From Candidatus Aldehydirespirator sp. (lineage in GTDB: Bacteria; Actinomycetota; Acidimicrobiia; Acidimicrobiales; Aldehydirespiratoraceae): DNA of 64,000 bases. A program made the position numbers and the translations under genes. The notes under the pieces were generated by a model. It did not search any database. It was not told where the DNA came from and saw only the letters and a list, made by a program, of their open reading frames with translations. The stretch covers positions 628,590-692,589 of the forward strand of contig OZ242033.1 of assembly GCA_965205155.1 (NCBI GenBank). The letters run 5' to 3'. The number at the start of each line of letters is the position of its first letter. Within the stretch, counting starts at the first letter, position 1. Shown here in pieces: positions 24,843 through 32,538 of the stretch.

Positions 24843-25823
24843 CTAGAGCAAGCTGGCGGCGATGGCGACTACCTCGGTCAACAGCTCGCGGTTGGCAGTC
24901 GGGCCGGGCGAGATGATGTTCACGAAGAAGGCGTCGAGGCGGTGCGCGCCGATCAGGCCCTGGAGCTGGCGGCGGCACTCCGCGGGTGTGCCCGCGATCT
25001 GGTATTCGGCCACCAGCTCGTCGGTGACGAGCCGGCCGACGGCTTCGGGGCCGCCCTCGTCGAAGGCCCGCTTCAGCCCGGCGATCTCGGCTTCGTCGAG
25101 GCCGAGGTTCTTGAGGATCCGGGGCGGGCTGTCCATGATGGCGTAGCCGTAGAGGTGCTTGGCCTCCTCGATCATCTCGGGCTTGTAGGCCAAGCGGTCG
25201 AGGTAGACGCGCGTGAGCGGGGCGCTCGCCTCCGTTCGGGCTTGGTCGGCAAGGCCGAACGCGTCGCCGAGGTCGGACTTGACCATCAGCACCAGGCCGT
25301 CGGCGTTGGTGCCGGCCAGGGCCAGCATCCTCTCGCCCCGGGCCGCGACCCAGATCGGGATCGAATGGGTGCCGGTGGTGAGTTGCGCCCCTTCCAGCGA
25401 GAGTCTCCGTCCCTCCCAGGTGACGGGCTCTCCCCGCCACAGCAGCCGGAGCGCCTCGATGGTGTCGGCCATCCGCGCCAGCGGGTCGGAACGCTCGAGG
25501 CCGATCGGACGCAGCACCATGGTGCCGCCGGCCACCAGCGTCACGAAGGCCCGGCCCCCGCTCATCTCGTCGACGGTGGCGACCGCGGCCGCGGTGGCGG
25601 CCGGGTGGCGGGTGTAGGGGTTGGTGACCGCCCCCAGGCGGATGGTGCTGGTGGCCCGGGCCGCCGCGCCGAGAACCGCGTAGACGTCCAGCATCAGGCC
25701 CTCGTCGGCCACCATGCAGTACGAGTAGCCGAGTTCCTCGGCGGCCACGATGGTGTCGATCAGCTCCGCCGAGCCCATCGTCGGCACGATCTGCAGACCG
25801 AGGGAGATGCCCTCTGCGGTCAC
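24843..25823 (-). CDS. LLM-class (luciferase-like) F420-type oxidoreductase, Mer-like
   Basis: GTG at 25823 overlaps the SDR stop (GTGA). IRLGAVTNPYTRHPAATAAAVATVDEMSGGRAFVTLVAGG closely parallels the methylene-H4MPT reductase/LLM F420 core as I recall it. Confidence 0.75.
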   Translation of the reverse strand: MTAEGISLGLQIVPTMGSAELIDTIVAAEELGYSYCMVADEGLMLDVYAVLGAAARATSTIRLGAVTNPYTRHPAATAAAVATVDEMSGGRAFVTLVAGGTMVLRPIGLERSDPLARMADTIEALRLLWRGEPVTWEGRRLSLEGAQLTTGTHSIPIWVAARGERMLALAGTNADGLVLMVKSDLGDAFGLADQARTEASAPLTRVYLDRLAYKPEMIEEAKHLYGYAIMDSPPRILKNLGLDEAEIAGLKRAFDEGGPEAVGRLVTDELVAEYQIAGTPAECRRQLQGLIGAHRLDAFFVNIISPGPTANRELLTEVVAIAASLL

Positions 25824-26545
25824 GGCGCGGTGTCCTGCCAGGGGTCGCGAATCGGCCGGATGACGACGGGGCCAATGTCGATGCGCCGGTCGGTCTCGAC
25901 CAAGTCGGCCACCAGTTCGCCCACGCCGTCGGCGGGCATCATGCGAGCCCGCACTGGCGCGGGCGCCTTGCGGTCCCACAGTCCCGTATCGATCTGCGCG
26001 GGGCAGACGGTGATGACCCTTATGCCCCGATCCCGCCCCTCCAGCCGGAGAACCTCGCCGAGCGCGTTCATCCCACCCTTGGATGCGGCGTAGGCGGCGT
26101 TGCCCTCGAAGGCCTGGACCGCGGCGATACTGCTGATCAGCACGATCTGCCCGCCGGCCGCAGCCAGCGGTTCCCAACCGGCGCTGGTGAGGGCCATGAC
26201 CGCGCTCAGGTTGATGTTGATGACGCGGCGCCAGTGGTCCGCGCTGGCCTCGGGCACGGTTGCCTTCTCGAAGGTGCCCGCGCTGTGAACGATCACGTCG
26301 AGGCGGCCGTGCGCATCGAGGGTCTCCGCAACGACCCGCTCAGGCTCGCCGGGTTCGGTCAAGTCCGCGGCCAAGGCCACCGCAGGCGCGCCCAGCCTCT
26401 CGACAGCAGCCTTCAGCCGGTCCTCCCGCCGTCCGACAAGCACACAGCGGGTGCCCCGGGCCGACAGGGCGGATGCGCAGGCCGCGCCGATGCCGGTGCC
26501 GCCCCCGGTGACGATCGCCACTGGTTCGGTGCCGGTGTCCGTCAT
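25820..26545 (-). CDS. SDR-family oxidoreductase
   Basis: Start at MTDTGTEPVAIVTGGGTGIGAA (26545). TGxxxGxG and YxxxK-type (AYAASK) motifs. Confidence 0.85.
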   Translation of the reverse strand: MTDTGTEPVAIVTGGGTGIGAACASALSARGTRCVLVGRREDRLKAAVERLGAPAVALAADLTEPGEPERVVAETLDAHGRLDVIVHSAGTFEKATVPEASADHWRRVININLSAVMALTSAGWEPLAAAGGQIVLISSIAAVQAFEGNAAYAASKGGMNALGEVLRLEGRDRGIRVITVCPAQIDTGLWDRKAPAPVRARMMPADGVGELVADLVETDRRIDIGPVVIRPIRDPWQDTAP

Positions 26546-26552
26546 GGGTGGC

Positions 26553-30641: not shown

Positions 30642-31315
30642 TAAGTCTCCTTCGTGTTGGCGATGAACTCCGCCCAGGGGATGCGGGGCAGGTGGTAGGC
30701 GCCATCGTCCACCGTGCGGAGGAAGGTACGCAAGCCGAGCCGACCGATGGGTCCGAGCCTCAGAGCGTCGATGCGGCCCCTCTCGTCGCAGACGGCCGCG
30801 TCGTAGGCCGCCCACACCACTTCGGCGATCACCAGATGGACCTCTCCGAACGGCAGGCCCGGCGTGCCTAAGTCCACCACCTGGCGCACTTCGCACTCCA
30901 GCCGGGCCAGCGCTTCGCCGATGGCCGGCGATGTCACCCTTGTGGCCGGCACGGGGGTCCACCCGGCCAGCTCGAACTCGTCGACCTCGCTGGGAGCCTC
31001 CATGGCGACCGTCTCGATCCGGTCGCGGAATGCCTCAGTGGTGACGTTGATGACGAAGTCGCCGCTGGCCATGGCGTTGGTGTAGGTGTCCTTGAGCTCC
31101 CCGCTCTCGCGCAGGCCCATGGTGATGCCCACCAGCATGGGATCGCCGGTGATGGGCAGGTAGTAGCTCATGGGCGCGATGTTGTTGACCCCTTCGGGGC
31201 TGCGGGTCGAGACCATGGCGATGGGGCGGGGCACCACCAGTTGCGACAGCATGTACTGCCGCTCCATCGGCGGGTGCTCGGCCGGGTCGAAGACGACGGT
31301 GCGCTCAGGGTCCAC
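30641..31315 (-). CDS. flavin reductase-like FMN-binding (split-barrel) protein
   Basis: FDPAEHPPMERQYMLSQLVVPRPIAMVST is a typical flavin-reductase N-terminus. The GTG start at 31315 is tentative. Confidence 0.7.
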   Translation of the reverse strand: MDPERTVVFDPAEHPPMERQYMLSQLVVPRPIAMVSTRSPEGVNNIAPMSYYLPITGDPMLVGITMGLRESGELKDTYTNAMASGDFVINVTTEAFRDRIETVAMEAPSEVDEFELAGWTPVPATRVTSPAIGEALARLECEVRQVVDLGTPGLPFGEVHLVIAEVVWAAYDAAVCDERGRIDALRLGPIGRLGLRTFLRTVDDGAYHLPRIPWAEFIANTKET

Positions 31316-31368
31316 GGGTGCTGGTCGCAGTCCTCGTCTCGTGGCGCCGTCGGTGAGGCGGGGGCTGA

Positions 31369-32538
31369 TCAGGCGCCGTTGGCGGGCCAGTGCTCGCGGT
31401 AGCGCTTCACCAGCCAGCGGTTGAACTGGACCAGGGTCTCCTCCTGCCACGAGTAGCGGCCGCGCGGGGCGAGATGGGAGTTGAGCCCCATCTGGGTCAT
31501 GGCGTCCACGTAGATGTCCTGCTGGTTGAAGTTGTTGACGCCCTCCTCGGCCGCCTTGAACAGGTAGTCGAAGAGGGGATCCTCCAGCGCCGACGGCTCC
31601 AGGCAGTAGCCGATCTGGATGGTGATGTGGCCGGCGTCCTGCGGGCTGATGATGAAGTAGGCCACCTCGTCGGGGACGATGGCCAGAGCCAGGGTGGGCG
31701 GGATCAGCACGAAGCCGCCCCGCTTGCGCTGCTCTTCGGTGAGATTCGAGAACACGGGGAGGATGCAGCGCTGGGTGGGATTGAAGGAGCTGTCGATGTC
31801 GGTGAAGTGCTGGATCCGGCCGATGGCGCCGTCGGTGTCGTCCCAGGGCAGGAAGTCGTTCATGTGGCTGGGGGCGAAGGTCTGCAGCGGCCCGTGGAGC
31901 CGGCTGGCGTGGTAGGGGTCGTTGAAGTTCTCCATCATGACCTTCCAGTTCCACGGCAGGTCGGGAATCGTCTTGCCCTCCAATGTTGTGGTCGACTCCA
32001 GGCCGTAGTTGGTGAGCATGGCGTCGATCTTGGTCATGGTCGGACCGAACGGCCGGGCGTTGCGGTCGAAGTTGGCCATGATGAACCCCTGCCAGATCTC
32101 CACCTTGAGTTGCGGGAGCGGATGATCGGTCCGGTCGAAGCCGGCGGCCCGGTCCATGGCCGGCGCGCCCAGCAGAGCGCCGTCCAGTCCGTAGGACCAG
32201 TGGTGGTAGGGGCAGGTGAAGCGGCGGCAGTTGCCGGACCCCTCCGCGATCACCATGCCCCGGTGGCGGCACACGGCCGACATCACCCGCAGCTCGCCGT
32301 CGGAGTCCCGGGCGGCTATCAGCGGCTCGCCCGCGATGGTGATGCAGCGGAAGTCCCCCGGCTCGGGCAGCTGGTCGATCCGGCCCACGCACAGCCACTC
32401 CCGCTGGAAGATGGCCCGCCGCTCGAACTCGTAGAACTCCGCCGACGTGTACAGGACGGGCGGCAGCAGCCGGGCCTCGTCCACCGGCCCCACGGAGGAG
32501 CCGAAGCTGTCCAGAAGGTCGCCGGTCAGCACTGTCAT
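31369..32538 (-). CDS. Rieske (2Fe-2S) / non-haem-iron oxygenase alpha subunit
   Basis: Start MTVLTGD at 32538 (GGAGAC upstream). CRHRG…CPYHHW and ENFNDPYHASRLH. Confidence 0.85.
   Translation of the reverse strand: MTVLTGDLLDSFGSSVGPVDEARLLPPVLYTSAEFYEFERRAIFQREWLCVGRIDQLPEPGDFRCITIAGEPLIAARDSDGELRVMSAVCRHRGMVIAEGSGNCRRFTCPYHHWSYGLDGALLGAPAMDRAAGFDRTDHPLPQLKVEIWQGFIMANFDRNARPFGPTMTKIDAMLTNYGLESTTTLEGKTIPDLPWNWKVMMENFNDPYHASRLHGPLQTFAPSHMNDFLPWDDTDGAIGRIQHFTDIDSSFNPTQRCILPVFSNLTEEQRKRGGFVLIPPTLALAIVPDEVAYFIISPQDAGHITIQIGYCLEPSALEDPLFDYLFKAAEEGVNNFNQQDIYVDAMTQMGLNSHLAPRGRYSWQEETLVQFNRWLVKRYREHWPANGA

Follow-up and report, generated by a model that had tools for sequence, protein, structure and literature searches.

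The 64,000-nucleotide stretch of the Candidatus Aldehydirespirator sp. genome analyzed here (contig OZ242033.1, positions 628,590 to 692,589; hereafter the window) contains a nine-gene operon that we judge, at about even odds (a probability of roughly 0.5), to be a catabolic module for an imported nitrogen heterocycle, likely a fused pyrimidine of the purine, pteridine/lumazine or flavin type. The operon joins homologues of Mch and Mer, two enzymes of the methanopterin one-carbon (C1) pathway, to the E1 subunits and lipoyl domain of a thiamine diphosphate (TPP)-dependent complex. We propose that these two folds have been re-tooled for the substrate itself, not for a cofactor-bound C1 unit. Our expectation is split roughly evenly between a purine-type and a pteridine/flavin-type substrate, which may carry a ribosyl or ribityl group. 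A preliminary description of this DNA had offered three readings of the operon: catabolism of an N-heterocycle, pterin-linked C1 metabolism, and tailoring for a neighboring polyketide synthase (PKS). In its general form the first of these fits the gene neighborhoods best, while its exact route stays conjectural.

Structure of the operon

The operon had been described as nine coupled minus-strand genes running from 32538 to 24843, and the open reading frame (ORF) calls and their translations bear this out, with all nine genes co-directional. Gene A (31369-32538) encodes the alpha subunit of a Rieske non-haem-iron oxygenase (Pfam Rieske and Ring_hydroxyl_A), and gene B (30641-31315) an HpaC-like Flavin_Reduct protein (PF01613, 86 bits) with an uncertain start, either the GTG at 31315 or the ATG at 31267. 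They are followed by the alpha subunit (gene C, 29664-30641; E1_dh, 194 bits) and the beta subunit (gene D, 28618-29667; Transket_pyr and Transketolase_C) of a TPP-dependent E1, a free-standing lipoyl domain of 89 amino acids (aa; gene E, 28323-28592; Biotin_lipoyl, 74 bits), and a short-chain dehydrogenase/reductase (SDR1, gene F, 27544-28326; adh_short_C2, 207 bits). The last three genes encode a full-length Mch-family hydrolase (gene G, 26553-27512; MCH, 340 bits), a second short-chain dehydrogenase/reductase (SDR2, gene H, 25820-26545; adh_short, 155 bits), and a Mer-like luciferase-like oxidoreductase (LLM, gene I, 24843-25823; Bac_luciferase, 173 bits), which is probably F420-dependent. 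Every one of these family assignments had been made earlier from motifs, and all were borne out by Pfam profile searches with scores well above the gathering score, those of Mch and the lipoyl domain included. The expected motifs are present: CxH..CxxH and DxxHxxxxH in the Rieske protein, GDG..NN for TPP, TGxxxGIG and YxxxK in the SDRs, and the lysine of the lipoyl hairpin (ETEK43V).

Four of the junctions are start/stop overlaps: the stop of gene B and the start of gene C share one nucleotide (TAGTG at 30641), genes C and D (29664-29667) and genes E and F (28323-28326) overlap as ATGA, and genes H and I as GTGA (25820-25823). Genes G and H are separated by 7 nucleotides (nt; 26546-26552), and these five junctions, all named in the preliminary description, proved exact on reading of the sequence. 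The remaining three are gaps of 53, 25 and 31 nt. Shine-Dalgarno-like GGAG or AGGAGG strings precede most of the starts. A scan for promoters of the sigma-70 type and for terminators found no terminator-like site on the minus strand within the block and no internal signal, and gene I ends 16 nt from a convergent gene. The arrangement recurs in dozens of genomes and is far beyond chance. The full-text literature that we searched contained no paper characterizing the nine-gene set or the module.

The Mch and Mer homologues

The Mch homologue aligns end to end with solved Mch structures, covers 311 of the 311 positions of the Pfam model, and reaches 281 bits against TIGR03120, where the equivalog cut-off is 228.8. 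Counted from HMMER alignments, its identity to solved Mch enzymes is 38% for Archaeoglobus fulgidus, 42% for structure 4fio and 48% for Methanopyrus kandleri (240, 203 and 182 bits, respectively). The catalytic Glu and Arg are both kept, as E189 and R186 in the string VQVAARIVE, and are invariant in the clade; E189 aligns with E186 of A. fulgidus, the site changed in the E186Q variant (4gvr/4gvs, of which 4gvs contains N5-formyl-H4MPT, the hydrolysis product of methenyl-H4MPT). Because these two residues are retained, the Mch chemistry, an attack on an amidine carbon, is probably kept as well.

Elsewhere the protein differs from canonical Mch. All 36 canonical sequences have a Glu at the position of M. 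kandleri E140, where 26 of the 27 E1-linked members have Gln (Q143 in the window); at the position of F284, 35 of the 36 have Phe and 23 of the 27 have His or Asp (H287 in the window). These switches appear only when the whole E1-linked group is contrasted with the canonical group; a strict contrast of nine clade members with the rest gave none.

The LLM is nearest to Mer among solved structures (129 bits, against 41 bits for the next class, other F420-dependent LLMs), and its best two NCBIfam matches are Mer models whose cut-offs it does not reach (PRK02271, 174 versus 276 bits; TIGR03555, 152 versus 348.7 bits). In the alignment the catalytic Glu6 of jMer is Gln11 in the window protein and the pterin-binding Asp96 is Gly100; an E6Q variant of jMer, the enzyme in which the roles of these residues were established, retains 0.4% of kcat (PMC11094777). 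The replacements hold in nearly all of the orthologues compared: the motif G[LIVM]Q[ILV][IV]P (GLQIVP type), which carries the Gln, occurs in 53 of 55 LLM orthologues, and VAGG[TS], which carries the Gly, in 42 of 55, down to 52% identity, the remaining orthologues being misses of the regular expression and not counter-examples.

The top NCBIfam matches of the LLM are all models of F420-class enzymes, which suggests that it uses F420. Among the loci examined, the Mer-like gene occurs only in Actinomycetota and Chloroflexota, both known F420 producers. The substrate pockets of both the Mch homologue and the LLM appear to be changed, and one might read the lost carboxylates, purely as an interpretation, as the mark of a pyrimidine ring that bears a 2-oxo group instead of a 2-amino group.

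The window proteins share the folds of canonical Mch and Mer and are clearly homologous to them, but their genes lie in a catabolic-looking cluster that also holds importers, hydrolases of amides, SDRs and the E1/lipoyl genes. The Pfam-matched called genes of 13 loci and the scanned proteins of L074 and L077 include no fae, mtd, fhc/ftr or H4MPT (tetrahydromethanopterin)-biosynthesis gene; for the other loci the screen was limited to a tblastn panel of 31 proteins without a C1-pathway query. All of these Mch-family proteins carry the database name methenyltetrahydromethanopterin cyclohydrolase.

Recurrence of the module across genomes

A genome scan gave 225 relatives of the window Mch and a protein search 464 proteins with E <= 1e-10, of which the best 120 are 64-95% identical to it. 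The closest, at 92-95%, belong to sponge-associated metagenome-assembled genomes (MAGs) of Acidimicrobiia named 'Candidatus Aldehydirespirator'; an exact-sequence look-up of the window Mch returned no record. Synteny was measured in 80 related genome loci and 11 loci around individual proteins, onto which 31 reference proteins were mapped by tblastn. All of the relatives are MAGs, some of them complete chromosomes (for example OZ244822.1 and OZ244872.1). We divided the 55 well-flanked loci by Mch identity to the window into clade A, the window's own (at least 83%, 32 loci), clade B, deeper Acidimicrobiia (68-82%, 12 loci), and clade C, Chloroflexota (below 68%, 11 loci).

The genes for the E1/lipoyl unit and SDR1 are nearly always present. 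All 32 clade A and all 12 clade B loci have E1alpha, E1beta, the lipoyl domain and SDR1, while among the 11 clade C loci we found E1alpha in 10 (54 of 55 overall), E1beta in 9, the lipoyl domain in 7 and SDR1 in 10. The tightest association is that of SDR1 with Mch, directly upstream of which it lies in 73 of 77 loci. The Mer-like LLM is present in 31 of 32, 10 of 12 and 3 of 11 loci of clades A, B and C, and SDR2 in 29, 11 and 1, respectively; clade C loci that lack the Mer-like LLM have a different LLM downstream (26-29% identity). A separate gene for the E2 catalytic domain (230 aa) is missing from every clade A locus but accompanies the module in most of clade B (11 of 12) and about half of clade C (6 of 11). 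E1alpha-E1beta-lipoyl-(separate E2 catalytic gene)-SDR-Mch is therefore the unit conserved across phyla, and SDR2 and the Mer-like LLM usually come after it. The neighborhood comparison thus confirms the core well beyond the window, while the full nine-gene order recurs only in the window's lineage.

Other genes are confined to one clade or shared by two. Found by tblastn in clade A only are the flavin reductase (25 of 32 loci), the amidase (23), the Rieske gene of the gene A type (22) and, at the thresholds used, the Bmp-type ABC importer (17), although Bmp-type ABC systems are present in the gene tables of clade C. The flavin reductase is present in three clade A loci without the Rieske gene, and the distribution indicates that the latter is a lineage-specific add-on. 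A helix-turn-helix (HTH)-cupin regulator is absent from clade A and present in 9 of 12 clade B and 9 of 11 clade C loci. Restricted to clade C are an XdhD-like xanthine dehydrogenase (XDH; 7 of 11 loci), an amidohydrolase of the type found in locus L002 (6), a YgeY-type M20 protein (4) and a protein resembling ornithine transcarbamylase (OTCase; 4). These Chloroflexota add-ons include a deaminase-type (cog0402) amidohydrolase, a YgeY whose 380 bits exceed the cut-off of 321, and an OTCase/YgeW-like protein. Clade B adds further LLMs and SDRs, two amidohydrolases, flavodoxin-like reductases and a NitT/TauT-type ABC system, and one of its loci (L085) additionally carries DeoC and FGGY genes.

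Three smaller observations concern these loci. The gap between Mch and SDR2 is filled in 18 of the 32 clade A loci by an ORF of about 139 aa without a Pfam family, sometimes duplicated (L001, 11018-11437); it is absent from the window, where that gap is 7 nt. In a sub-lineage without Rieske, flavin reductase or SDR2 genes (L001/L034, L031, L032), malate synthase G directly follows the LLM, a neighbor that may hint at glyoxylate or acetyl-CoA as an end product. One contig labelled as an uncultured Gammaproteobacteria MAG (L047, CAXMSE010000012.1) has an Mch 78% identical to that of the window and the full clade B gene order; its label probably reflects a binning error or a transfer.

Distant relatives of the Mch homologue

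The Mch clade of the window forms one cluster at 50% identity, and a search of 1.84 billion representatives placed its next relatives at 36-44%; the Mch family as a whole numbers 1107 representatives. At 44% (P0126), the Mch gene lies with an HTH-cupin regulator and a Bmp protein; at 42% (P0128), with an aldehyde:ferredoxin oxidoreductase, an ECF transporter with a RibU-type S component, an amidohydrolase and HTH-cupin; at 38% (P0127), E1alpha and E1beta directly follow Mch; and at 36% (P0134), the neighbors are a PydA-like reductase, an amidohydrolase, HTH-cupin, E1alpha/beta and an M19 dipeptidase. A paralogue in locus L077 (34%) lies with Lpd, E1alpha/beta, a full E2, a xylose-isomerase-like protein, DeoC, FGGY, a second Mch, a Bmp-ABC system and an FMN reductase. 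A member of P0127's 90% cluster (P0307), in the Halanaerobiales-type locus L091, has the order SDR-Mch-E1alpha-E1beta-full E2-LplA-GntR-Lpd-Mch-SDR-amidohydrolase, beside which lie an isomerase, FGGY and a methyltransferase set of corrinoid, URO-D and Pterin_bind proteins. This set, whose URO-D-type member is a methyltransferase, spans 3085-8342 of that locus beside a radical SAM gene, just upstream of the SDR-Mch-E1-E2 block.

In a neighbor-joining tree the distant relatives group together, apart from the three solved canonical Mch enzymes. Taken with their neighborhoods, this indicates that the association of Mch with E1 is older than the window's clade. The core ranges from marine Acidimicrobiia through Chloroflexota to anaerobic Firmicutes, in looser form around the distant relatives.

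The E1 and lipoyl genes

The E1 subunits resemble those of 2-oxoacid dehydrogenases. Among solved structures the closest relative of E1alpha is that of pyruvate dehydrogenase (PDH; 137 bits), followed by branched-chain 2-oxoacid dehydrogenase (BCKDH), with no acetoin E1 among the structures; E1beta scores 317 bits against the NCBIfam PDH E1beta subfamily, just below its cut-off of 321. The top NCBIfam match of the lipoyl protein is the lipoyl part of acetoin-dehydrogenase E2 (94 bits). The module thus has E1alpha/beta with the TPP motif in common with acetoin and 2-oxoacid dehydrogenase complexes (AcoABCL, PDH), and it recalls acetoin dehydrogenase in its lipoyl domain and in the butanediol-dehydrogenase-type SDR alongside.

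Unlike these complexes, the module has a split E2, consisting of the free 89-aa lipoyl protein and the 230-aa catalytic protein, and in the window's lineage the catalytic part is gone. We found no 2-oxoacid_dh or E3_binding match in the window and no E3 in the operon. The separate catalytic protein of the relatives has the DHRFIDG motif and no E3-binding domain, and a full E2 with Lpd occurs only in the distant loci L077 and L091. The window's lineage has lost the E2 catalytic gene, and this loss suggests that there the lipoyl-bound product need not reach CoA.

A proposed catabolic route and its alternatives

We propose the following route, in which each step is drawn from family membership, residues and synteny. 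The compound would be taken up by the adjacent Bmp-type ABC system and, in the window's lineage only, hydroxylated or N-dealkylated by the CntA/GbcA-like Rieske enzyme, to which the Flavin_Reduct protein may supply electrons. The Mer-derived LLM, which has lost the Glu that Mer needs for opening the methylene bridge, would then use F420H2 for direct reduction of a C=N or C=C bond of the ring. With SDR1 as its partner, the Mch-derived hydrolase would attack a cyclic amidine carbon (N-CH=N) to give a formamide-type product, and an AtzE-like amidase could strip formyl, ureido or acyl-urea groups. An SDR or the ring opening itself might yield an alpha-keto acid, an alpha-imino acid or an alpha-hydroxyketone, which the TPP-dependent E1alpha/beta would cleave or oxidatively decarboxylate onto the free lipoyl domain. 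In deeper Acidimicrobiia and Chloroflexota the separate E2 catalytic subunit would hand the acyl group to CoA; in the window's lineage the acyl-lipoyl product would have to be hydrolyzed, cyclized or handled by a housekeeping E2.

We favor catabolism over C1 metabolism because the core is constantly accompanied by hydrolases of amides or amidines, by an HTH-cupin regulator resembling PuuR and by importers for compounds of nucleobase, nucleoside or vitamin type, because the reductase varies by lineage (Mer-like LLM or PydA-like), because XDH-family, YgeY and OTCase-like genes accompany the core in Chloroflexota, and because pentose kinase and isomerase genes recur in three lineages. The uptake types that recur around the core are Bmp, ECF-RibU-like and NitT. 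Genes of catabolic flavor are found in the window as well: those for an XDH-family enzyme, the AtzE-like amidase, a pair of xanthine/uracil permeases and an amidohydrolase of the deaminase type.

Several points weigh against heterocycle catabolism. No single candidate substrate accounts for every gene, and under a purine model the E1/lipoyl genes have no obvious role except as a pyruvate dehydrogenase. The joint presence of Mch and Mer homologues may still point to a ligand resembling a pterin, gene A resembles formaldehyde- or amine-releasing oxygenases (CntA/GbcA), the window contains a trimethylamine N-oxide (TMAO) demethylase, and the Pterin_bind set of L091 adjoins the core there, as the sole pterin-related neighbor seen in any locus. 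Gln143 and His287 of the Mch homologue are putative pocket-lining residues, placed by alignment; the family tree, being a neighbor-joining tree without support values, is approximate; and the synteny rests on tblastn against MAG contigs. Moreover, the Halanaerobiales-type locus has no recognizable reductase, and 'reduce then hydrolyze' is therefore not the invariant logic of the module. The invariant trio is SDR-Mch-E1.

The chief alternative is a true pterin-linked C1 module, with Mch as a cyclohydrolase of methenyl-tetrahydrofolate or an H4MPT-like cofactor, the SDR as methylene-pterin dehydrogenase and the LLM as F420-dependent methylene-pterin reductase, which would process formaldehyde or methyl groups freed by Rieske demethylases. 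The Mch score above the equivalog cut-off with the catalytic Glu and Arg in place, the proximity of the LLM to Mer, and an SDR-Mch adjacency that resembles Mtd-Mch or FolD pairing all speak for it, as do the CntA/GbcA-like Rieske enzyme, the TMAO demethylase with its folate-binding GCV_T domain, and the corrinoid/Pterin_bind methyltransferase set of L091. There is also a precedent in haloarchaea, whose Mch and Mer homologues have been proposed to work with tetrahydrofolate (PMC8305020). Yet the catalytic Glu and the pterin-binding Asp of Mer are replaced in the window LLM, with the replacement motifs recurring in 53 and 42 of 55 orthologues, two residues that are practically invariant in canonical Mch are switched across the E1-linked group, and the loci scanned for genes of H4MPT biosynthesis and C1 transfer had none. 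These residue changes and the missing H4MPT genes weaken the C1 reading of the preliminary description, which in addition gives no role to E1alpha/beta-lipoyl, the amidohydrolases or the uptake systems. Rieske genes, moreover, are confined to one clade. We consider the C1 reading unlikely.

A variant without a pterin would be a formaldehyde-oxidation cycle on a vicinal-diamine carrier, in which SDR1 oxidizes a cyclic aminal to an amidinium, Mch opens this to an N-formyl compound, an amidase or amidohydrolase frees formate and regenerates the carrier, and E1/lipoyl make or recycle the carrier. It would account for the SDR-Mch pair being the tightest link, for the amide hydrolase that is nearly always nearby, for altered pocket residues that fit a non-pterin ligand, and for the formaldehyde-yielding enzymes in the window. 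However, it is a chemical analogy only, gives E1/lipoyl no clear role, and leaves unexplained the uptake transporters, XDH, the YgeY and OTCase-like genes, the PydA-like reductase and the pentose kinase and isomerase genes; we regard it as quite improbable.

Least probable is that the operon serves the neighboring PKS as a tailoring or extender-unit module, much as certain E1/lipoyl systems supply carrier proteins with glycolyl units. A gene for an Sfp-type phosphopantetheinyl transferase (PPTase) and a PKS gene do lie just upstream, and the order PPTase-amidase-operon is found in 16 of 32 clade A loci. The core nevertheless occurs without a PKS in close and distant relatives alike, and this third reading is not supported: L001, with an Mch 88% identical to the window's, has peptidases and a major facilitator superfamily (MFS) transporter upstream and malate synthase downstream, without PKS or PPTase, and both are lacking around the core in all clade B, Chloroflexota and anaerobe loci. 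The module has no acyl carrier protein (ACP) and no acyltransferase to load one, and the operon is paired with an uptake transporter.

A broader form of heterocycle catabolism, which we hold more tentatively than the reading of the window operon itself, is that the E1-linked Mch proteins of Acidimicrobiia, Chloroflexota, Halanaerobiales and others are the ring-opening amidine hydrolases of a widespread, undescribed pathway of purine, pteridine or flavin degradation, in which the TPP-dependent E1 and the free lipoyl domain cleave or decarboxylate a heterocyclic intermediate. If so, every annotation as methenyltetrahydromethanopterin cyclohydrolase in the E1-linked lineages is wrong, and the E1/lipoyl reaction on a heterocycle would be of a type new for lipoyl-dependent complexes. 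The gene mch is used as a marker of H4MPT-linked methylotrophy, and if this clade acts on another substrate, reconstructions of H4MPT-linked C1 metabolism in marine, sponge, soil and wastewater Acidimicrobiia and Chloroflexota are wrong as well. The module is widespread, and with importers and hydrolases of N-rings for neighbors it probably marks a turnover route, so far uncharted, for nucleobase- or vitamin-like dissolved organic nitrogen. It would also be a clean case of two consecutive C1-pathway folds recruited together into catabolism. The folds themselves are known; what is unusual is that homologues of Mch and Mer were recruited together and that they are obligatorily paired with E1/lipoyl.

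Comparison with known pathways

The best parallel for the proposed chemistry is lumichrome (riboflavin) catabolism in Nocardioides simplex, where hydrolytic opening of the pyrimidine and amidine hydrolysis are followed by TPP-dependent decarboxylation of a heterocyclic alpha-imino acid and then by xanthine-oxidase-type and Rieske steps (PMC12746152). The enzymes are the hydrolases LumH/I/M, the TPP-dependent heterocycle decarboxylase LumK/L, the xanthine-oxidase-like quinoxaline oxidase LumJ (140 kDa) and the Rieske dioxygenase LumABCD (PMC12746152). The window likewise has an amidine-hydrolase candidate, a TPP enzyme, Rieske oxygenases, an amidase and a 1301-aa XDH-family protein, whose mass estimated from its length is about 140 kDa; LumJ was compared with it by size only. 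The differences are substantial, however. Set against the module by description only, LumK/L is a two-subunit decarboxylase of 20 and 23 kDa and not an E1alpha/beta, and the Lum pathway has no lipoyl carrier, Mch fold or LLM and no demonstrated orthology to the module. The 2025 lumichrome work brought heterocycles within reach of another TPP enzyme, and the module may do likewise for TPP/lipoyl chemistry.

The reductive pathway of uric acid (2,8-dioxopurine) comprises XdhD, YgfK/UacX, SsnA, HyuA, YgeW, YgeY and YgeX (PMC12507026; bioRxiv 10.1101/2025.04.24.650524) and couples an unfavorable ring reduction to hydrolysis (PMC12507026). The Chloroflexota cores sit with an XdhD-like XDH, YgeY, an OTCase/YgeW-like protein and a cog0402 amidohydrolase. 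By contrast, the window operon lacks all of the defining enzymes, neither HyuA nor YgeX is present, the amidohydrolases reach 182 and 131 bits where the SsnA cut-off is 455.5, and Mch, E1alpha/beta, the lipoyl domain and the SDR have no counterpart in the uric-acid pathway. Li et al. described Chloroflexota uricolytic clusters with an F420 luciferase-family gene in place of YgfK/UacX (PMC12507026), and this gene is most likely the Mer-like LLM of the module. The proposed 'F420-dependent yanthine reductase' of Chloroflexota would then be part of a larger Mch-E1 module that is found also without XDH, SsnA and YgeY, so that its assignment needs revisiting.

Gene A carries both iron motifs of the CntA/GbcA-type Rieske monooxygenases (CRH..CPYH and DPYHASRLH) but falls short of equivalog level: among solved structures it comes nearest to the carnitine monooxygenase CntA (130 bits), and its top NCBIfam match is GbcA, at 123 bits against a cut-off of 670. 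CntB and GbcB, the partners of these enzymes, are FNR-type [2Fe-2S] reductases; the partner candidate of gene A is the Flavin_Reduct protein, not a reductase of that type.

Other routes were considered and set aside. The homarine and trigonelline pathways were weighed for the pair of Rieske and flavin-reductase genes; the hom operon has other families and no Mch or E1. Biopterin side-chain cleavage, 6,7-dimethyl-8-ribityllumazine, ectoine/hydroxyectoine, methylated sponge purines, thiamine degradation products and inosine ring opening were not adopted as candidates for want of evidence.

Genes flanking the operon

An amidase-signature enzyme of the AtzE/allophanate-hydrolase type is encoded 428 nt upstream of gene A, also on the minus strand (32967-34400, start approximate; Pfam Amidase, 344 bits). 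It scores 302 bits against the NCBIfam AtzE family, below the cut-off of 461, is syntenic in 23 of 32 clade A loci, and is probably on a separate transcript. Convergent with the operon is an uptake operon on the plus strand (18967-24826; Pfam Bmp, ABC_tran and two BPD_transp_2) that encodes a Bmp/PnrA-type binding protein (19201-20268), an ABC ATPase, two permeases and a conserved 221-aa protein (24161-24826). Of the 32 clade A loci, 17 have this block adjoining the operon, and the core is accompanied by Bmp-type systems in Chloroflexota too, as is the Mch relative of 44% identity. Among solved structures the Bmp protein has only weak matches, to an unnamed binding protein and TmpC, and the 221-aa protein matched no Pfam or NCBIfam family and no solved structure in a meaningful way.

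Beyond the uptake operon, on the minus strand, lie a second Rieske oxygenase (Rieske2, 17643-18992) and a fused XDH-family molybdoenzyme of 1301 aa with Mo and FAD domains (13718-17623), both identified with Pfam and NCBIfam. In the latter the Mo domains precede the FAD domain, no N-terminal 2Fe-2S domain was recognized, and the top matches are the alpha subunit of 4-hydroxybenzoyl-CoA reductase and XdhA. Six clade A loci (L005, L013, L015, L022, L030 and the window) have Rieske2 next to the ABC operon, and the XDH-family gene lies beside Rieske2 only in L013 and the window. Both are possible accessory genes whose link to the operon is positional.

On the other side of the amidase gene, likewise on the minus strand, are the Sfp-type PPTase (34574-35338) and the single 3246-aa PKS (35658-45398), both assigned with Pfam. 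The domain order of the PKS is KS-AT-DH-methyltransferase-ER-KR-ACP with a second KS. This pair appears to be unrelated to the operon.

Other features of the window

The 64 kb contain four paralogues of the Rieske alpha subunit, at 17643-18992 and 31369-32538 on the minus strand and at 50627-51814 and 53151-54665 on the plus strand. No beta subunit or classical reductase was found beside any of the four, and one of them abuts a gene for a DeoC/LacD-family aldolase (51815-52762). Two tandem permeases of the xanthine/uracil family (46227-49926, minus strand) lie 14 kb from the operon and would fit a nucleobase-scavenging lifestyle. The deaminase-type amidohydrolase of the window is encoded at 60461-61912; it is the one that scores 131 bits against SsnA. 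Apart from transfer RNAs, Rfam gave no match, and thus no riboswitch or other RNA clue to a ligand, in the window or in 11 loci.

At the start of the window, a minus-strand gene (90-2582) encodes an 830-aa fusion of DUF1989 and GCV_T that scores 1185 bits against Tdm, the TMAO demethylase, for which the equivalog cut-off is 1100. Since the match lies above that cut-off, the organism would handle methylated amines by way of a folate-binding enzyme. Beside this gene lies one for an ammonium transporter (3499-5022).

An HTH-cupin regulator (5706-6467, minus strand) lies beside a hydantoinase A/B pair (7196-11238, plus strand). The regulator has the domain pair HTH_3 and Cupin_2, as do the regulators that flank the core in other loci, a likeness of domains only. 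The top matches of the hydantoinase pair are caprolactamase subunits, at scores below the cut-offs, and the two genes may encode a further ATP-dependent system for opening lactam or hydantoin rings in this region.

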